A DNA stretch of 26,104 bases, from positions 1-26,104 of the IMG/VR virus record IMGVR_UViG_3300044305_000543; one strand, written 5' to 3'. The position numbers and the translations under genes are program-made. The DNA comes from a virus. Its lineage: Duplodnaviria > Caudoviricetes. Under the pieces are notes generated by a model that did not search any database, was not told the DNA's origin, and saw only the letters and a program-made list of their open reading frames with translations. Shown here one piece after another: positions 1,011-25,946 of this stretch (positions are counted from its first letter, which is position 1; every line of letters starts with the position of its first letter).

Positions 1011-4000
1011 ATGGTAGAAAAAGTAGGCTTAACAACTCCTCAAACAACTTCAGACATAACTACATCTGAAGGTTTAGGTGTAGGAAGTTTTGGTAATCCT
1101 TATTTGCCGCAAGATTCTTCTGGTGCTCTCGAAAAAGATATTGCAAAAACTTCAGCTTTACTTGACATTGTTACAGATACATCACAACTAGAAGAACCTG
1201 AGCAAGTAGACTTAGGCCCACAAGTTTTATTTAGCCCATCAACTAAAAAGATGTTTGTTAATGGTGCTACTTTTGATGTTGACGATTACCAATCAGCGTT
1301 AGACGCAAAACAATTTTTAACACAACCAACGGCTCCAGCCCCTGTAGATGTAGCAGAGGATTGGGTTAGAGTAAGTCCAGATACTTTCACTAAGTATATA
1401 CAAGATATAAAAAATCCTAGCTTAGGCAGACTAGCTTCTAAAAACTTTGATATTGGTGTAGATAATTTAAAATTATTAGCTGGTAGAGGCTTACAATTTT
1501 ATGGCAAAGAAGAAACAGGTAAAGAGTGGGTTGACGAAGCACTAGCAGATTTATACAAAAACCAACCATTCCAAAGAGAATTCCAAAACGAATCAGGTGA
1601 GTTTGTATCTAATGGTTTAGTCGACTGGTTTGTAGCAAACTTAGCACAGCAAGGTCCTATGATATTAGAATCTATTGCTGTAGCTTTAGTCGGTGGTGTT
1701 GCAGGTGGATTAGCTGGTGGAGGTGCAAACCCATTTACAGCCCTCGGTGGTAGTTTATCCGCTTTAATGGGTAAAGAATCATTTAAACAAGGTGTATTGG
1801 CTGCTGCTAAAAAATACAGTAAAGGACAACCAATGACTGTTGGCGAGAAAAAACTTCTTCGTGAAGTATCAGGCATGGCTGGTGCAACAAAAGTTAAGAA
1901 CGATGTTTTTTATAATAACCCGTTTACAGGTGCGAAAAACAGAGCTATTAGAGATGATGCTTTAGAATATACTGGGGCTAAAATAGCAGGAAAAGGTGGT
2001 GCAACTCAAGCTCGTATAGGTGGTGCAGCAGGATTTTCTATACTAGGAGCTCAACAATTAGGTCAAGCTGACATCTATGGAGAAGTTAGAGAGACTGGTG
2101 TTGGTGATAGAGGCACAGCTTTTCTAGGTTCGTTCCCTTATGCTGCGGCTGAAGTTATACCTGAGTTTTTTCTAGCGGGTAAAATACTAGGTTTAAATCC
2201 AGCTAAAATGAGAACAGGTGCTGACGTATTAAAACGTGGGCCTAAAAATATTTTTAGAAGAGCTGCTGAAGGTATTGCAGTTGGTGGTGCATTAGAAGGT
2301 GCTACTGAATTAGCACAAGAAAGTATACTACTAGGTGGTACAGACCAGCTAGGAGATGCTGGTACATATAGAAGATTACTCAATGCGTTTGCAGCAGGTT
2401 TTGCAATCGGTGGTCCTATCGGTGGTATTGCAAATCTTAAAACGGACAAGGTTGCTGATGTATTAAATCCAGAAAGTAACAAAGACCCAGAGCCAGAAAC
2501 TACTTCACAGAAACCACCAGAGCCAGATGAGACTGGGCAACTTCCACTATTTGGGCCTGAAGTAACATCAAGAACTAGAGATACTAGAAGGAATCCAACA
2601 GGTGTTCCACAACCTCAACCTGTAGAAACACCACAACCCACACAATTAGATATTTTTGGTGGTGAAGATGTTATACCTACACAACCAGAAACAGACCCAA
2701 ATCAACTAGAATTAGATTTAACTGGACAACAACCTGCTGCAACAGGGCAACAAAGTTTACTTACACCAACAGGTCGTGCTAGAAACAGAAGAAGGCAACA
2801 AGCTGCAACAGCTGGAGCAACTGGAGCGGCTGCAACAGCTGGGCCATCTGCATCTAACCTTCAAGTTTCTGACCCTATAGGTTCACCTATACCTGCACCT
2901 AATCCAGTTATACAACAAGTTCAACAAAATAGACAACCTCCTGTTCAAACTACTGGTCAAGTTTCTGACCCTATAAGTTCACCTGCATTTGTACCTAATC
3001 CAATTTTGCAAACAGTTCAGCAAACTGACCAGACTAAGCCAGAGGCAGACATAAATAATGAATTATATAAATTAAAAACAGGTAGAACTATAAGTACTTT
3101 TGGCCAACAAGATTTATTAGACCAAAGAGACAGATTAGTACGTAAGAAAAAATTAACCAAAAGAGAAGACAGAGACCTTCAAGCTATTCAAGCTGCTATT
3201 CTTAGACGTGAAGCTGCTATGGCAACAGGTGCTGCAGTAGGTGTTGGGACTGAAAATAGATTACAACAAGTTGTTAATGAACGAAAACAAATAGCTGAAG
3301 ATAATAAGCGAAACGCAGAAATTTTAAAACAGGCTCAAAGAGACGAGGCTAAACGTAGAAAAGCAGAAGAAAAACTAGAAGCTGAAAGAATAAAACAAGC
3401 TGAAGCACAAACTAAAATATTAGAAAATCAAGCTGCTGCAACTGCAGCTGCAACAACAGAAGGAGGTACACAAGATGCCATTCAAGAGCAAGAAACAAAT
3501 GAAGTGGTTGTTCAAGAACAAGCCCGAGATAGCGAAGCAGTTCCAGAAGGAGACCAGCAAACAACAACTGTTGAAGTTACCGAACAAGGTCAAGAAAACC
3601 AAGGACAAGCTCAAACTGGAAGCCCGATTACGGGACAAGAAACGAAAGCTGATAGCCTTAAAAGGGGCAGGGAAAATATCAGCGAACAAGTTCAAGAATC
3701 AACCAATAGGGCGAGGGAAAATCGTGTAGTAACACCTGTTAGACCTAAAGCTACTAGAGACCCAGCTACTATATGGGCGTCTTTAGGTACAGCTTTAACT
3801 TACGATAACTTGTCACCAGAACTTCAAGAACAGTTTCAAAATGACCCATCATTTACAAGAGCTGATGAGCCTAACATAGGTAAATTAAGAAACAAATATA
3901 TGTCGCTTGCACAAGCAGAAGTAGAAGCAAATAGAAATATTGGGTCTAATTCTGAAATACTATTAGATGCACAAGCACAAATAGAAGGGTTACAGGGAGA

Positions 4001-7000
4001 AACTACAGCAGATGTAGATGCACTTACTGATGCTATAGCAGATATGATGGAGATTGCATTTGGAGGTGAAAATCCTAACGCTAATAAATCTCAAGATTTA
4101 TTAAAAGGTAAATCAGAACGTAAATTTGTTAAAGATTTTTTACTTAACACTCAGTTTACTGACCAACAAATAGATATTATAAGGCAGGAATTTATTAGTT
4201 CGATTATTGCACAAGAAAGAAGAAGTATGCAAACAGGCGGTGTTGAATCTGACTGGGTAGTTGTAGCAGAAAAATTAGGAGCAATGGATACAATACTTAA
4301 CACAGATACTTTAAGTGTAAGAAATAAAGTTGCAAGATATCAAGCAGCACAAGAACCAGTTACAGATACTATTGGTGATACTGAGCAGGCAGGTACAGAT
4401 TTAAATGAAGAGAAAGCCACTCAAAAACTAACCGATATGATAGTTGGGTATTTAACAAATAAAAAATATATAACTAACGCTGTACCTGAAGAAATAAAAA
4501 CTCTTTATGCTAGTGCAAACAAAGAAGCGATTGTGCAAGGAGTACCACTAAAAGATTACTTTGATAAAGATGGTAATATAAATCTTGTGCAATCAACAAC
4601 TGAAAGTGGTATGAAAGTTCGTAAACCTGCACCCATAAACAATAAGCAAACAGCTCCTACTGTCAATGACATAGTTAATGAAGCTGATGGCAAAGATGGT
4701 AAGTATTATAGGTACACAGATGGGCAAGAAATAAAAGACCCTGTGCCTAAAGGTAAAGCAGAACTAATAGTTAAACAAGTATTAAGAAAACTTAAAACTA
4801 AACCTACAGTTACTGTAGTTAAAAACAGAGAAGAATTACAAGAAACAAACCCTGCGTTGTATAAAAGAGCAACAGAAGCTAGAGATGATTTTGATACAGT
4901 TAATGCATCAGGTTATTCTTTTGGTGACCAGATAATAATATTTACAGACTTTGTTAAAGATGAACAAATGTTACGAAGTATTATTGGGCACGAAGCACTA
5001 GGACACTTTGGCTTTAGAGCTTTCTTACCAATGAATAGACTCAAGTTAGTATTTGATGACATCTACAATAGTGACCCAGCTATAAGATTAATAGCTGATA
5101 TGAATATAAACAATGGGCAAGAAAAGTATGAGGCTATAGAAGAAGCATTAGCTGACCATGCTGCCTATGTTGATTCACATATACTAGCAAGATTTTGGAA
5201 TGCAATTAAAAACTTTATGCGAGATGCATTTGGCATAGAGTTCCAAGATGATATGACAAGATACTTAATATTCCAAGCTCGCAGGAACTTGCGTACAGGT
5301 GGTAGTGGTGTTGTAACAGTAGGGCAAATGATGGAGAACATGAACAGACTAAGAAACGAAAGTAAGTATGGTCGTTACTTTGTCGAAACACACTCAACTG
5401 TAGCAGCTAAAGGTTTAACAAGTATGGCACAAAGACTTACTAACCAGCCAGGTGAGTTATTTAATTATAAATCATATTATGAGGGAGCTAAAAAAATTGG
5501 TAGGCGTATATACGAGGGTGATGCATCAGGATGGTTTGGTAGAGTACTTGAAGAGTTTCAAACATTAGATAACGTAGCTTTGCGTAGTGAAGGCTTATCA
5601 AAAATCTTTGCGTTGTTTCAAGGACAAACAGCAAGGACAAGAAAGTATCAACAGATATATGGTGATATGACTAAGTTTACTCATAGTGCAAATTACTCTG
5701 GTTTGTTTGGGCAAAACGGACCTACAGCACAAGAGTTAGAAACAGCAGGTAAACTACTAGCATTTGGTGCACTGTTTAAAAGCGGTCAAATTAATAGTGA
5801 CGCTAATATAAGAAACGCTCCATCATTAATAACAAAAGACGGAGAAGGCAATCCAATTATTGACATGGCAGTTTTTGAAAAAATGAAAGCTGATAACATT
5901 ATAAGTAAAGAAACTTTTGAACAAGGTCTTGATGTTCAACTAGATTTTCTAGAAGACGGTACACCTAATCCAGATGGTAGACCTTTTAGATTTGAACCTG
6001 GTGCTATTAGCGATAGAGTTTATAGAATTTACCAAGAAAATAGAAACGCTGTAGATGAAGCTGCTAAAGATTTATTAGAGTCTAACCTAGAAGCTACCTT
6101 ATCAGAAACTACAGATATACTACAAATGGTTAAAGAGTACTCAGAAGACAGTCGTGGCGTAGGAGCTAGTGCTCAAGATGTAGCTGCAGCAAGAATTATT
6201 TTAAATAAATATAAAGAGATTTATTCTGAAGGAGCTACGCTAGAAGGTGTAGGTATTCAGTATAACCCTGAATCTGAAGCCAAAGCAGAAAGATTTTTAA
6301 GGGACGCTAATCGTGCTTTATGGGAACAAAAAAAACTTAACGATTGGGTTAGTGGTAATACCACTGAAGTTCCTATATTAAAAGACGGTAGTGAACAATT
6401 TACTGATGTAGTAAATAGTCTGCAACAACTACATGAAATCTATAATAATAAAAAAGCTGACGCAAAAACAGTAACAGATACAATACAAAACTTATTAATA
6501 CTAGATTTAAAAAATAACAATAATGAATTTAATGCAAAGAGAACTATACTAGGTGGGTATGTACCATTTACTAGGCGTGGTAAATTTCAAGTAACACTTA
6601 GAGCTTTTGATAATGATGGTAATGAAGTAGAACTAGCTGACCATACTAAAAATGTTTTACCATACTATCAAGTCGCTACTCAAGAAGATGCAAGAGCTTT
6701 AGAAAAAGAGTTAACAGAAGACTTTGGCGGTACTAATTATAAATTTATAGATAATAACTTACAAGAAGTAGAAGTTACTTTAGAAGCTAGAACAGCTGCT
6801 GTGTCAAAAAGTGCACCCGTATCTAGTGAGATGAATCTAAATGAATTTACTAGCATCATGGCTAGAATAGGAGTTAATCTAAAACCAGAGCAACAAAAGA
6901 AAATAATTACTGCTTTGACAAAACAAAGCGACAGGGCAAGAAGAAGTCTGCAACGTTCAGGTACAGCTGGTTGGGACGCAGATGTTGTAAGAAGTGTGTC

Positions 7001-8999
7001 AGAACATTTAGAAACTATGTCTCATGCAGCAGGTAAAACTTTCTACTCTCATAAACTAAATAAATATACTACTGATGTAAAACTATGGAGTAAAGGCAAC
7101 AAGAAAAAATTAAATAGACTTAGAGAAAGAATGGAGCAAGTAGAACGAACAGGTAATGATGAGCAGATAAAAATTGCACAACAACAATATGATGCCTATG
7201 CAAACCAGTATAGATATAGTGCAGAAAAAGGTGAGACCATCACGGTATTTAAAGGCAGTGGTAGAGGTAGAGAATCAATGCAGGTTGCCACTGAAGGTGA
7301 AGGTAATAGATATAAAGACATAGCTAGTGGGCTACTAGATTTCTATGGTAAAGCAGGAAACATAGACGTATCTACAGAAGATATGCTTTCAGGTGAAGCA
7401 GGTTCTGCTATAAAATTATTAACAGTAACTACACAACTTGGTGGTTCTCTTGCAACAGGTATTATAAATACCATGTCTATGGTTACTCATAGTATCCCTT
7501 ATTTATCTACGTATAACGCTAAGACGGGTTATGGTGGTGGCTTTGGTATGGGTAGGTCGGCTAGTGCTATGACTATGGCATTAAGAAATATGAAGAACTT
7601 TAATCTAGAGAACTTATCTCATGTGCAAAAAGTAATTGATGATAAAGCATTACAGAATAAATACGGTATAACTCAAGATGAAGCTCAGGTATTACTTGAA
7701 GCTACTGAACAAGGTGTACTTCAAGCGGCACAGTTTAATGCTCTTGTTGGTACAGCTAGAGGTGGATTGATGGCTAAGAAACAATTAGCTGCTGGTGTCA
7801 GAGCATGGATGAAAATATTCTCATACACAGAGCAGTTAAATAGAAGAACAACTTTCTTAGCAGCGTACAGATTACAAAGAGATAAGCTACAAGCTGCTGG
7901 TCAGAGTTTAAAAGAAGCTTCTAAAAGTGCAGAAGAGTTTGCCATAAGAGCTGTTAACACATCTCAAGGTGAATATGGAATGTTTAACAGACCACAAATG
8001 GCTCGTGGTAATGTACTTCAATACATCTTTATGTATAAACAATTTGTAATTATTACTGTAGAACTTATAAAAAACTTAGCTCCAAAAGAAAGATTAATAT
8101 TACTTGGTATGCTTGTATTACTTTCAGGATTAAAAGGCTTACCGTTTGCTGATGATATAACAGATTTAATAGATACATTAGTGCAAAAACTGGGTATTAA
8201 AATGGGAACTGTAGAAAAAGAATTAACAGAACTTATAGAAGAACTTGCACCTGGAGCATCACCAATAGCTATGAGAGGTATAATGGATTACTATCTTGGA
8301 GCTACCATATCTACAAGATTAGGCTTCGGTGATTTGGTACCACTAACAGGGCTCGGTAAGGCAGGCTCAGACAACTGGCAAGAAGTTAAAAACTTTTTTG
8401 GGCCTGTGTATTCTGCAGCAGAACAAACAGTAGTTACAGCAAATTTAGTAGCACGACAAGGTGCGGAAGCTATAGGACTTAAAGATGATACAACAACTTG
8501 GTCTGATATATTTAAGAACCAACCATTCGGTGCATTAAGAGGTGTAACAGATGGTATATCTTATATGGCAAACGGACATATAACAAACAAACAAGGTAAG
8601 ATATTACAAGAAGATGTAAGCGGTTTACAGACTTTCTTTAGATTCTTAAACTTCTACCCAGCAGGAGCTACTTACCAAAATGATATTATAAGAATGAGTA
8701 AACAAACTGATGGTTATGTTAAAGCAATTAAAAAAGGTTATACCGATGCTTGGGTTAAAGCAAAACTAATAGGAGATAGAGATAGAATGAGACAGGTAGA
8801 ACGAGATGTTAGAGAACATAACCAAGACCATAGAGGTACTGAGTTTGAATTAAAACGTTGGTTGCCTTCAGCACAAAGAGCATATAAAGCTTGGTCACTA
8901 CCAGCAGCTCAACGATACAAAAAGTTCGCTCCTAAAAATATCAGACCTGATACACAATTTTTATTAGACGCATACGAAGACGCAATAGATAATCACTAG
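1011..8999 (+). CDS. Giant (2662 aa) internal virion / DNA-ejection-type polyvalent protein with a zincin-like motif and a PLxRFG-like C-terminal region
   Basis: 8-kb ORF with an SD. Features in order: N-terminal Gly/Ala-rich hydrophobic segments; a long Q/P/T/E-rich disordered linker; HEALGHFG...EEALA at about 4989-5150; YVPFTRRG at 6558-6581 (resembles the PLxRFG signature); C-terminal helical region with KGLPF. It is the last gene of the + strand block. Confidence 0.75.
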   Translation: MVEKVGLTTPQTTSDITTSEGLGVGSFGNPYLPQDSSGALEKDIAKTSALLDIVTDTSQLEEPEQVDLGPQVLFSPSTKKMFVNGATFDVDDYQSALDAKQFLTQPTAPAPVDVAEDWVRVSPDTFTKYIQDIKNPSLGRLASKNFDIGVDNLKLLAGRGLQFYGKEETGKEWVDEALADLYKNQPFQREFQNESGEFVSNGLVDWFVANLAQQGPMILESIAVALVGGVAGGLAGGGANPFTALGGSLSALMGKESFKQGVLAAAKKYSKGQPMTVGEKKLLREVSGMAGATKVKNDVFYNNPFTGAKNRAIRDDALEYTGAKIAGKGGATQARIGGAAGFSILGAQQLGQADIYGEVRETGVGDRGTAFLGSFPYAAAEVIPEFFLAGKILGLNPAKMRTGADVLKRGPKNIFRRAAEGIAVGGALEGATELAQESILLGGTDQLGDAGTYRRLLNAFAAGFAIGGPIGGIANLKTDKVADVLNPESNKDPEPETTSQKPPEPDETGQLPLFGPEVTSRTRDTRRNPTGVPQPQPVETPQPTQLDIFGGEDVIPTQPETDPNQLELDLTGQQPAATGQQSLLTPTGRARNRRRQQAATAGATGAAATAGPSASNLQVSDPIGSPIPAPNPVIQQVQQNRQPPVQTTGQVSDPISSPAFVPNPILQTVQQTDQTKPEADINNELYKLKTGRTISTFGQQDLLDQRDRLVRKKKLTKREDRDLQAIQAAILRREAAMATGAAVGVGTENRLQQVVNERKQIAEDNKRNAEILKQAQRDEAKRRKAEEKLEAERIKQAEAQTKILENQAAATAAATTEGGTQDAIQEQETNEVVVQEQARDSEAVPEGDQQTTTVEVTEQGQENQGQAQTGSPITGQETKADSLKRGRENISEQVQESTNRARENRVVTPVRPKATRDPATIWASLGTALTYDNLSPELQEQFQNDPSFTRADEPNIGKLRNKYMSLAQAEVEANRNIGSNSEILLDAQAQIEGLQGETTADVDALTDAIADMMEIAFGGENPNANKSQDLLKGKSERKFVKDFLLNTQFTDQQIDIIRQEFISSIIAQERRSMQTGGVESDWVVVAEKLGAMDTILNTDTLSVRNKVARYQAAQEPVTDTIGDTEQAGTDLNEEKATQKLTDMIVGYLTNKKYITNAVPEEIKTLYASANKEAIVQGVPLKDYFDKDGNINLVQSTTESGMKVRKPAPINNKQTAPTVNDIVNEADGKDGKYYRYTDGQEIKDPVPKGKAELIVKQVLRKLKTKPTVTVVKNREELQETNPALYKRATEARDDFDTVNASGYSFGDQIIIFTDFVKDEQMLRSIIGHEALGHFGFRAFLPMNRLKLVFDDIYNSDPAIRLIADMNINNGQEKYEAIEEALADHAAYVDSHILARFWNAIKNFMRDAFGIEFQDDMTRYLIFQARRNLRTGGSGVVTVGQMMENMNRLRNESKYGRYFVETHSTVAAKGLTSMAQRLTNQPGELFNYKSYYEGAKKIGRRIYEGDASGWFGRVLEEFQTLDNVALRSEGLSKIFALFQGQTARTRKYQQIYGDMTKFTHSANYSGLFGQNGPTAQELETAGKLLAFGALFKSGQINSDANIRNAPSLITKDGEGNPIIDMAVFEKMKADNIISKETFEQGLDVQLDFLEDGTPNPDGRPFRFEPGAISDRVYRIYQENRNAVDEAAKDLLESNLEATLSETTDILQMVKEYSEDSRGVGASAQDVAAARIILNKYKEIYSEGATLEGVGIQYNPESEAKAERFLRDANRALWEQKKLNDWVSGNTTEVPILKDGSEQFTDVVNSLQQLHEIYNNKKADAKTVTDTIQNLLILDLKNNNNEFNAKRTILGGYVPFTRRGKFQVTLRAFDNDGNEVELADHTKNVLPYYQVATQEDARALEKELTEDFGGTNYKFIDNNLQEVEVTLEARTAAVSKSAPVSSEMNLNEFTSIMARIGVNLKPEQQKKIITALTKQSDRARRSLQRSGTAGWDADVVRSVSEHLETMSHAAGKTFYSHKLNKYTTDVKLWSKGNKKKLNRLRERMEQVERTGNDEQIKIAQQQYDAYANQYRYSAEKGETITVFKGSGRGRESMQVATEGEGNRYKDIASGLLDFYGKAGNIDVSTEDMLSGEAGSAIKLLTVTTQLGGSLATGIINTMSMVTHSIPYLSTYNAKTGYGGGFGMGRSASAMTMALRNMKNFNLENLSHVQKVIDDKALQNKYGITQDEAQVLLEATEQGVLQAAQFNALVGTARGGLMAKKQLAAGVRAWMKIFSYTEQLNRRTTFLAAYRLQRDKLQAAGQSLKEASKSAEEFAIRAVNTSQGEYGMFNRPQMARGNVLQYIFMYKQFVIITVELIKNLAPKERLILLGMLVLLSGLKGLPFADDITDLIDTLVQKLGIKMGTVEKELTELIEELAPGASPIAMRGIMDYYLGATISTRLGFGDLVPLTGLGKAGSDNWQEVKNFFGPVYSAAEQTVVTANLVARQGAEAIGLKDDTTTWSDIFKNQPFGALRGVTDGISYMANGHITNKQGKILQEDVSGLQTFFRFLNFYPAGATYQNDIIRMSKQTDGYVKAIKKGYTDAWVKAKLIGDRDRMRQVERDVREHNQDHRGTEFELKRWLPSAQRAYKAWSLPAAQRYKKFAPKNIRPDTQFLLDAYEDAIDNH
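2861..3024 (+). repeat. Imperfect in-frame tandem duplication inside the giant gene (96-nt period)
   Basis: TCAAGTTTCTGACCCTATA[G/A]GTTCACCT begins at both 2861 and 2957. The copies encode QVSDPIGSPIPAPNPVIQQVQQ and QVSDPISSPAFVPNPILQTVQQ. Confidence 0.85.
3461..3467 (+). promoter_or_regulatory. Internal Shine-Dalgarno site for the nested ORF
   Basis: AGGAGGT (full anti-SD complement) lies 7 nt upstream of the out-of-frame ATG at 3475. Confidence 0.65.
3475..3729 (+). CDS. Nested (+1 frame) 84-aa highly basic protein, MPFKSKKQMKWLFKNKPEIAK type
   Basis: It has a perfect SD with good spacing. The N-terminus resembles the MPFKSxxQxxW/YxxxNxPExAxxW pattern I recall from small stand-alone phage ORFs. 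It overlaps a low-complexity part of the host protein. Confidence 0.6.
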   Translation: MPFKSKKQMKWLFKNKPEIAKQFQKETSKQQLLKLPNKVKKTKDKLKLEARLRDKKRKLIALKGAGKISANKFKNQPIGRGKIV

Positions 9000-25202: not shown

Positions 25203-25228
25203 ATTTACTCCTATGATTACTAGTTATA

Positions 25229-25754
25229 TCTATACGCCATGTATAGAATTCATTAAGGATAGATAGGTAACTTGCAAGTTATTTACAGGTGTTACGCCAC
25301 CTATCTATCCCATTACATATGGATAACACCCGATATTTATTGTGGTATCGCCACAGTACTAGTTCTCTTTAGGTCATATGTAATTCATTAAGGATAGATA
25401 GCCCCTCTTTGTACATTGGTTTACTATCCGATAGAGTGCATTTAATCTATCTATCCCATGTTAAGGATAGTCTGTTCTGTTTAACAGTGAGCATTAAAGT
25501 GTCCGTGAATTACACTACTACTATCCCATTAATACCCAACTTTCTCCCATACCTGTTAGAGTCATTGTTAATAGGAATCCCACATCTAGTTAAGGTATGT
25601 TCCCACCTAACAGTATTAATTCTAAGGATAGATAGGAAGTCCCATGGGGCTAGTCTTCCCGACCTATCTATCCCATTAAAGTGACTAGTGCGTAGTCTTT
25701 AAACCACCTGAATAATGCACTAGTCACCACCTTGTGCTGTCTTACTGCTACAAG
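25229..25754 (-). ncRNA. Candidate structured RNA locus: tandem hairpin array with four conserved GGATAGATAG/CTATCTATCC stems and variable loops
   Basis: A ~550-bp gap in an otherwise gap-free operon is almost fully tiled by about nine stem-loops. A terminal G-U pair on the minus strand (A-C on plus) weakly favours minus-strand RNA. RNA expression is inferred, not shown. Confidence 0.5.
25254..25676. repeat. Four-copy repeat TAAGGATAG(ATAG)-variable-(CTAT)CTATCCCAT
   Basis: Stems lie at 25257-68/25299-310 (12 bp), 25392-401/25447-56 (10 bp), 25465-71/25520-26 (7 bp) and 25626-36/25663-73 (11 bp). Confidence 0.9.
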
Positions 25755-25946
25755 TTAATTCATATAATCTTTCATTACTATCCAATCAATAGCAATCTCA
25801 ATATCCTCTCTAGGTAATTCAGCCTCATCACAGAGGTGTTCTAAAACCCTTTTACATTGTGTATCTGATAGCTTTTTACCTAAGTAATCCTCTGCTACTC
25901 TATTAATATCTTCATAGTCTAGCTCTAATATAACTTTACTAGCCAT
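25755..25946 (-). CDS. Small hypothetical protein (63 aa)
   Basis: Perfect AAGGAGGT SD upstream of the ATG at 25946. Confidence 0.8.
   Translation of the reverse strand: MASKVILELDYEDINRVAEDYLGKKLSDTQCKRVLEHLCDEAELPREDIEIAIDWIVMKDYMN

Follow-up and report, generated by a model that had tools for sequence, protein, structure and literature searches.

The hairpins that precedes the AAA ATPase gene of this phage form a genuine array of RNA cassettes, mobile and under selection, of a kind that has apparently not been described. Its anatomy is well supported, and the processing of its RNA is plausible. The explanation of the whole that we favor, with a probability of about 0.4, is an array of exchangeable cassettes from which RNase E would release small RNAs, their folded payloads serving as decoys for host proteins.

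The stretch of DNA analyzed, referred to here as the window, is the whole of a linear virus record of 26,104 nt that represents about half of a genome (~48% complete). Its genes include PolA, an SNF2 helicase and DUF927 (Pfam), and an AAA/DUF2201 vWA/Nmad5 operon on the minus strand lies downstream of the array. The window's proteins have no close relative in cultured phages. A 63-aa ORF lies upstream, its stop codon overlapping the first linker variant of the array. Elsewhere in the window, positions 1011-8999 encode a virion-type protein of 2662 aa whose C terminus resembles the PHROG DarB-like antirestriction family. Locus L373 is the same phage past the right end of the window and contains the TTGACAGAAAAAATTTTTTCGTGCAAGGT motif twice (324-352 and 1711-1739); both copies lie near the left end of the genome, each preceding an early gene, and are promoter-like with a non-canonical -10.

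An earlier note, made from the letters of this DNA, had described four hairpin units with variable inserts, and their positions, stem lengths and insert lengths were confirmed base for base. Three more stem-closed cassettes and two small hairpins, located between and around the units, had been overlooked, and the array is larger than the note had it, extending over 25230-25765. Its features, in gene-strand order, are as follows.

25757..25765, minus strand: first linker variant, AUAUGAAUU, at the array start
25731..25754, minus strand: small leading hairpin, retained in the close relatives L374, L376 and L377
25681..25727, minus strand: class A cassette C12, with a stem of 11-13 bp
25626..25673, minus strand: clamp unit 4, arms 25626-25636/25663-25673, 11 bp
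between the arms of unit 4, minus strand: unit 4 payload, 26 nt, family F8
25618..25625, minus strand: linker variant UUAGAAUU, RNase E-type RNWUU
25531..25617, minus strand: class A cassette C1, an 87-nt RNA found at no fewer than 19 loci
25465..25526, minus strand: clamp unit 3, arms 25465-25471/25520-25526, 7 bp
between the arms of unit 3, minus strand: unit 3 payload, 48 nt, family F17
25392..25456, minus strand: clamp unit 2, arms 25392-25401/25447-25456, 10 bp
between the arms of unit 2, minus strand: unit 2 payload, 45 nt, family F3
25382..25391, minus strand: canonical linker UUAAUGAAUU
25315..25381, minus strand: class A cassette C9, ACAUAUG/CAUAUGU stem with an inner hairpin
25257..25310, minus strand: clamp unit 1, arms 25257-25268/25299-25310, 12 bp
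25269-25298, minus strand: unit 1 payload, 30 nt, family F2
25247..25256, minus strand: canonical linker UUAAUGAAUU
25230..25246, minus strand: last hairpin, CUAUAC/GUAUAG, at the 5' end of the AAA message; retained in L374-L378
24162..25202, minus strand: AAA ATPase, 346 aa, the first gene downstream of the array; a neighbor, not a dedicated partner

Read along the gene strand, the order is small hairpin, C12, F8, linker, C1, F17, F3, linker, C9, F2, linker, last hairpin, RBS and AAA. Both the repeated segments and the stems are confined to this region. All six exact copies of GGATAGATAG in the window, on both strands, are inside the array. The 26-kb window has five perfect stems of 10 bp or more that enclose loops of 20-60 nt, all within 25203-25760, and 300 dinucleotide shuffles of that segment gave a mean of 0.06 and a maximum of 2. 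The stem sequence of C12 differs across its four variants, and its inner UUCAGGUGGUUUAAAGAC segment is invariant. Payload F3 contains a short clamp-like copy (CUAUC GGAUAG on the gene strand, 25423-25433), which may be left over from the fusion of two units.

The repeat, read on the gene strand, consists of a linker, UUAAUGAAUU, a class A cassette with its own stem, an AAUG-type spacer, and a clamp with its payload, the clamp being GGGAUAGAUAGG...CCUAUCUAUCC on either side of the payload. Of 53 distinct linker-to-clamp segments, 41 are closed by a separate stem of 5 bp or more, against a mean of 9 and a maximum of 16 in shuffles. Class A cassettes range from a minimal hairpin without payload, C2, which is present at no fewer than 19 loci, to the 87-nt C1 and to a true tRNA-Asn. 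Because a genuine tRNA-Asn (70-73 bits) occupies the class A slot in 4 of the 26 loci scanned, the arrays are stable-RNA operons. The tRNA-Asn(GUU), which has no encoded CCA, is found in this slot at L007:3151-3224, L024:3066-3139 and L288:777-850. The start of its acceptor stem matches C2, hinting that the minimal hairpin may derive from tRNA-Asn. Small protein genes, one of them a DUF2958 gene, lie between cassettes and are bounded by the same linkers in L008, L011, L024 and L434:15502-15810, so the array can carry ORFs too. In a second AAA subgroup (L008, L024, L037, L301 and L321), the RBS of AAA is immediately preceded by ~100 nt of conserved non-coding sequence that looks structured. An AUG-GGA-UAG minigene was considered and rejected: of 125 distinct units only 61 follow an ATG, and just 3 of 70 have an SD-like motif within 9 nt.

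The extent of the family was assessed by scanning IMG/VR and JGI metagenomes with exact-arm patterns and by searching with the AAA protein. The pattern scans demanded exact arms, so the family is undersampled; loose-scan matches were mostly due to chance, and only units passing the arm filter were kept. At least 267 clamp units were found in at least 153 redundant marine viral or metagenome loci. The units listed comprise 116 distinct sequences in 61 clusters, and 151 of the loci listed form 52 groups by their flanking DNA. About 55 payload families are present among the matches listed, the 61 clusters having been reduced by dropping two lone context-free matches (F42 in L213 and F60 in L341) and merging four length variants. 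Payload lengths run from 8 to 89 nt across families, which share no 5-7-mer above the shuffled maximum. The inserts had been called unique, and this is correct within the phage itself; beyond it, all four window payloads recur. Among the loci listed, F2 is found in at least 19 (11 groups), F3 in at least 19, F8 in at least 8 (4 groups) and F17 in at least 5. The sole GTDB match, in a Victivallales MAG (L281), is without a linker and was excluded from the count. Cultured phages gave no nucleotide match to the array, and neither clamp nor payloads occur in the Pelagibacter phage EXVC031P Hodr or in the first 30 kb of HTVC023P.

The earlier idea of a constant handle with an interchangeable payload has held up well, the same payloads recurring across loci and in different stems, and among relatives both insert content and unit number change. 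In L374, L375 and L376 the AAA protein is 98-99% identical to that of the window, yet cassette content and order differ. F3 is present in Sak/RecE-type loci (L006, L021, L031 and L038) and F2 and F8 are present in the ArdC-type locus L001; with the arrays masked, the 3.9-5.5 kb flanks of these loci have zero proteins in common with the window. A threshold of two shared proteins resolves four contexts among the 44 loci flanked by 3 kb or more. The complete carrier genomes G003-G005 have no protein in common with the window plus L373, and G002 has only a distant PolA and helicase in common with the window plus L373. The G002 record (L427-L429) appears chimeric, its tail/lysis block being duplicated and a PolA module being present in excess. 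G004, an array-bearing 33-kb phage, encodes two adjacent fatty-acid desaturases (L432:12426-13849). Payloads also survive transplantation: F6 is found in a class A stem, AAACAG/CUGUUU, and three different stems carry the AUGGCUA loop. The canonical clamp holds 361 of the 397 payload matches in fetched loci; the other 36, read by eye, lie in variant stems or are truncated by contig ends. Payload identity between unrelated phages is about 90-100%, which may reflect recent transfer and not selection. The cassettes are probably swapped when the two constant segments undergo homologous recombination.

An alternative in which function resides in the frame and not in its contents would have the stems and linkers act as punctuation by which the early transcript, and the occasional tRNA, is matured and stabilized, the inserts being near-neutral cargo shuffled by recombination. 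An RBS and start do follow within 70 nt of the last clamp in 53 of 78 distinct downstream flanks, and C2 is a class A hairpin that dispenses with a payload altogether. Neutral cargo should decay, however, and the payload identity between unrelated phages, the survival of transplants and the covariation presented below all argue for retention; the tRNA, moreover, is confined to a few of the scanned loci. We regard this alternative as distinctly unlikely.

The genes around the arrays vary with the lineage. The earlier note had put forward the AAA/vWA/Nmad5 operon as a partner of the array, a proposal we abandon, AAA following the array in only 4 of the 22 phage groups (14 of 70 loci) with at least 1.5 kb of downstream sequence. 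Anti-restriction genes, ArdA and ArdC, are downstream of arrays in two lineages. A common phage partner protein was not seen among the carriers compared, G003-G005 included.

Against shuffles, both strands of the region fold far better, with z of -4.4 for the minus and -5.0 for the plus strand, so that folding energy alone cannot pick the strand. The mismatches in the clamp are more informative. The search patterns left clamp position 7 open to both G-U and A-C; G-U is found there in 11 families and A-C in none, and positions 1-11 together hold 37 G-U, 3 A-C and 13 other mismatches, the invariance of pairs 1-6 being an artefact of search selection. This wobble asymmetry indicates pairing as RNA on the gene strand. 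The array thus very probably acts as RNA transcribed from the minus strand, in agreement with the first reading of the sequence, and the same asymmetry counters the cruciform or origin that had been offered as its DNA-level alternative. Compensated changes occur in variant clamps recovered through payload searches, and covariation, for which a check had been proposed, is seen in payloads F1 and F6. The F1 pseudoknot keeps its crossing helix with double changes at two pairs, a score reached in 4 of 500 shuffles; the corresponding score for the F6 pseudoknot was reached in none of 500; and a by-eye model of C1 has room for 31 pairs in five helices that include crossings, with one covarying pair, all three cases involving 6-9 closely related sequences from which the structures were themselves drawn. 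Taken together, the payloads show no folding advantage over shuffles (mean z -0.27, n = 47), and potential for a pseudoknot reaches p <= 0.05 in only 2 of 44. Rfam 15, run on the window and 36 loci, passes tRNA alone, with the others far below the gathering score; no match falls inside the window's array.

A TTGACA-type promoter is found within 260 nt in 16 of 77 distinct upstream regions, and lies 9-11 nt before the first clamp in 10; in the window's own phage none was found close to the array. Contigs with the array are present in metatranscriptomes of 4 studies, which is weak evidence, the RNA runs having been picked because they contain it and the contigs carrying neither strand nor end information. 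Five of eight metatranscriptome pieces cover the array, as does the deepest piece of run X1, and some RNA-library contigs cross the linkers (X1 25307-25611, X2 25515-25713), a point against cleavage there. In one metatranscriptome contig unit 4 is joined to another cassette, the arrangement seen in L015.

Pairing in the clamp declines after position 11-12, and stems are 7-15 bp long. RNase III substrates are duplexes of about two helical turns, so these stems look too short for the RNase III cutting proposed at first, and the single-stranded linker matches the motif of a different enzyme, RNase E. We suggest that an early transcript would be cut by host RNase E at the single-stranded UUAAUGAAUU linkers, the products being end-protected small RNAs that have a hairpin at the 5' end and the clamp at the 3' end. 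Terminal structures of this type resist exonucleases. It is probable that RNase E frees RNAs of ~70-235 nt with this arrangement. The core motif RNWUU, given for RNase E in the available text of PMC5222698, is found in the linker in 117 of 137 right flanks, a raw count for a lax motif in A/U-rich sequence. A single-stranded RNWUU site between structured units, a feature of RNase E-processed polycistronic RNA, is present here.

Once released, the folded payloads would bind host RNA-binding or defence proteins as decoys. Since the carriers compared showed no partner in common, host components are the likely target of the payloads, and the decoy reading is favored because the fold is conserved, payloads are transplantable, turnover is fast, and the arrays are in the early region near ArdA and ArdC. 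We tentatively suggest that payloads act by shape on host proteins and not by base pairing. Base pairing would be the mode of action if the payloads were antisense regulators or sponges of host mRNAs or other RNAs, with the clamp presenting a seed. Several payloads are indeed short unstructured loops of 8-25 nt, the conserved AUGGCUA core is displayed in different stems, and strong internal folding is absent from most payloads. A closed clamp of 10-12 bp would nevertheless restrict helix formation, and the variation in F1, F6 and C1 preserves internal pairs. Searches for complements also argue against pairing: none that is convincing was found in the rRNA of 8 species, 2 of 55 families reached p <= 0.05 against 14 E. 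coli RNA-gene regions, and 2 of 14 tests did so against the window's own genes, with gapped best alignments. We rate antisense action as unlikely, although it deserves some weight.

Compact folds also raise the possibility that the payloads are ligand-binding or catalytic RNAs, such as small-molecule sponges or ribozymes. The multi-pseudoknot potential of C1 and the H-type pseudoknots of F1 and F6 are of the kind typical of aptamers and small ribozymes; against this, no Rfam riboswitch or ribozyme match was obtained at E <= 1-5, and many payloads are too short. We give this proposal a slim chance. The payloads might alternatively imitate the sense strand of rRNA and titrate ribosomal proteins or rRNA-targeting toxins, and there are isolated resemblances: F3 is collinear with E. 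coli 23S 427-469 (z 3.6, a weak likeness), F20 agrees exactly with 23S 712-725 over 14 nt, and conserved 8-mers are enriched 1.6-fold (z 2.4). Across the 55 families, however, the mean z was 0.35 for sense and 0.22 for antisense, with p <= 0.05 in 3 of 55 for each, and k-mer tests were mostly flat (n = 45). Compared with the 16S and 23S of 8 species, rRNA mimicry was rejected as a general explanation, and it retains very little probability. Mimicry of other E. coli stable RNAs was likewise rejected, 14 regions taken at presumed coordinates giving p <= 0.05 for 2 of 55 families. In Rfam, the payloads have no resemblance to known antitoxins, repeats or other families.

A lead to the host comes from three carrier genomes, G002, G004 and G005, which have 22-24 proteins in common with Hodr (terminase about 81%, capsid 78-80% and tail fibre 45-52%). 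From these sequence relationships, SAR11 or a relative is a plausible host for the Hodr-related carrier lineage, to which this lead is confined. Hodr itself has one long stem-closed non-coding element directly before its first early gene (L436:12223-12345), in a position analogous to that of the array and with a different sequence.

Under the decoy model, it is conceivable that marine phages, whose host is possibly SAR11, share a recombining library of RNA aptamers, in which each payload blocks or diverts a host protein of its own. The phage RNA decoys known so far are isolated examples. If the model is true, more than 50 exchangeable payloads in one scaffold, common to unrelated lineages, would constitute a new layer of phage-host conflict and a translation-free RNA counterpart of anti-defence gene clusters. 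Such RNA cassettes are invisible to gene callers. The hosts concerned may be the most abundant marine bacteria, and each payload is a short, synthesizable probe whose binding partner would reveal host anti-phage factors. As a design, clamp plus linker also lends itself naturally to the multiplexed expression of small RNAs.

No published description of the array was found in the literature searched, which left most subscription journals outside its coverage, and the clamp string is absent from the 7 searchable supplementary files of PMC10690425. Together with the Rfam result, this agrees with the initial view that the array is not of a described family. The contrast drawn at the outset with CRISPR is also sound. 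CRISPR arrays have direct repeats and near-constant spacers, whereas here payloads of 8-89 nt lie inside an inverted clamp, with a second cassette class between units. A foreign-DNA origin of spacers finds no support in IMG/VR, where the F2 core has 9 matches and the F6 core 4, every one of them inside a stem, and neither a Cas match in the Pfam-scanned proteins nor an Rfam CRISPR repeat in the array was found. A guide array for an RNA-guided effector, whether CRISPR-, TIGR- or bridge-RNA-like, or a DNA-level array of hairpins or recombination sites, would account for two alternating constant segments with variable inserts, the constant segments probably being used in recombination. It does not account for the range of payload lengths with no common internal motif above the null, for the G-U asymmetry, or for the payload matches outside the canonical clamp, which lie in variant stems or are truncated by contig ends. 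Nop, Cas, RT and integrase were not found by Pfam in the scanned proteins. Guide behavior, which had been suggested for the inserts, is not supported, and neither is spacer behavior, given the stem enclosure of every payload copy found and the several payloads that covary as folded RNAs. We consider such an array very improbable.

The phage arrays called TIGR, as described in the available text of PMC12045711, are similar in form: their units are tandem and closed by stems, their interiors vary, and a host RNase yet to be named processes them. In that text, each TIGR unit has two spacers of 8-12 nt set among box C/D motifs, and a Tas gene with a Nop domain is adjacent; the interiors here are 8-89 nt long, conserved across phages and without a shared motif. 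None of the 161 Pfam-scanned proteins has a Nop domain, a count in which Pfam may miss remote members and the window contributes only about half a genome. An integron-type array would have an integrase and cassettes that bear genes; here no integrase was found by Pfam in the scanned proteins, and the cassettes are without an ORF.

Phages T4 and T5 have tRNA clusters with co-transcribed small stable RNAs, which are polycistronic and matured by host RNases. The array resembles these clusters in that tRNA-Asn can occupy a cassette slot, and it differs in being mostly tRNA-free, in its fixed two-slot grammar, and in a large payload pool that is mobile across phage lineages. Single-stranded RNWUU between structured RNAs is shared with the polycistronic sRNAs matured by RNase E, although those covered by the available text of PMC5222698 are host RNAs, largely Hfq-dependent and antisense, and not swappable phage cassettes. 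The precedent for a decoy is the pseudo-ToxI of phage PhiTE, an RNA mimic of the type III antitoxin ToxI (PMC3475682, in the part available). Both systems have intergenic non-coding phage units, pseudoknot RNA, copy number altered by recombination, and a proposed host-protein decoy. Pseudo-ToxI, as presented there, consists of tandem, near-identical 36-nt repeats of one mimic, whereas here some 55 unrelated payloads without likeness to ToxI occupy a standard clamp. Units differ within each array, and pseudoknot support is limited to F1, F6 and C1, so these are not type III antitoxin repeats. Of the known systems, the array works most like a stable-RNA operon, and possibly one whose products act in the manner of pseudo-ToxI.
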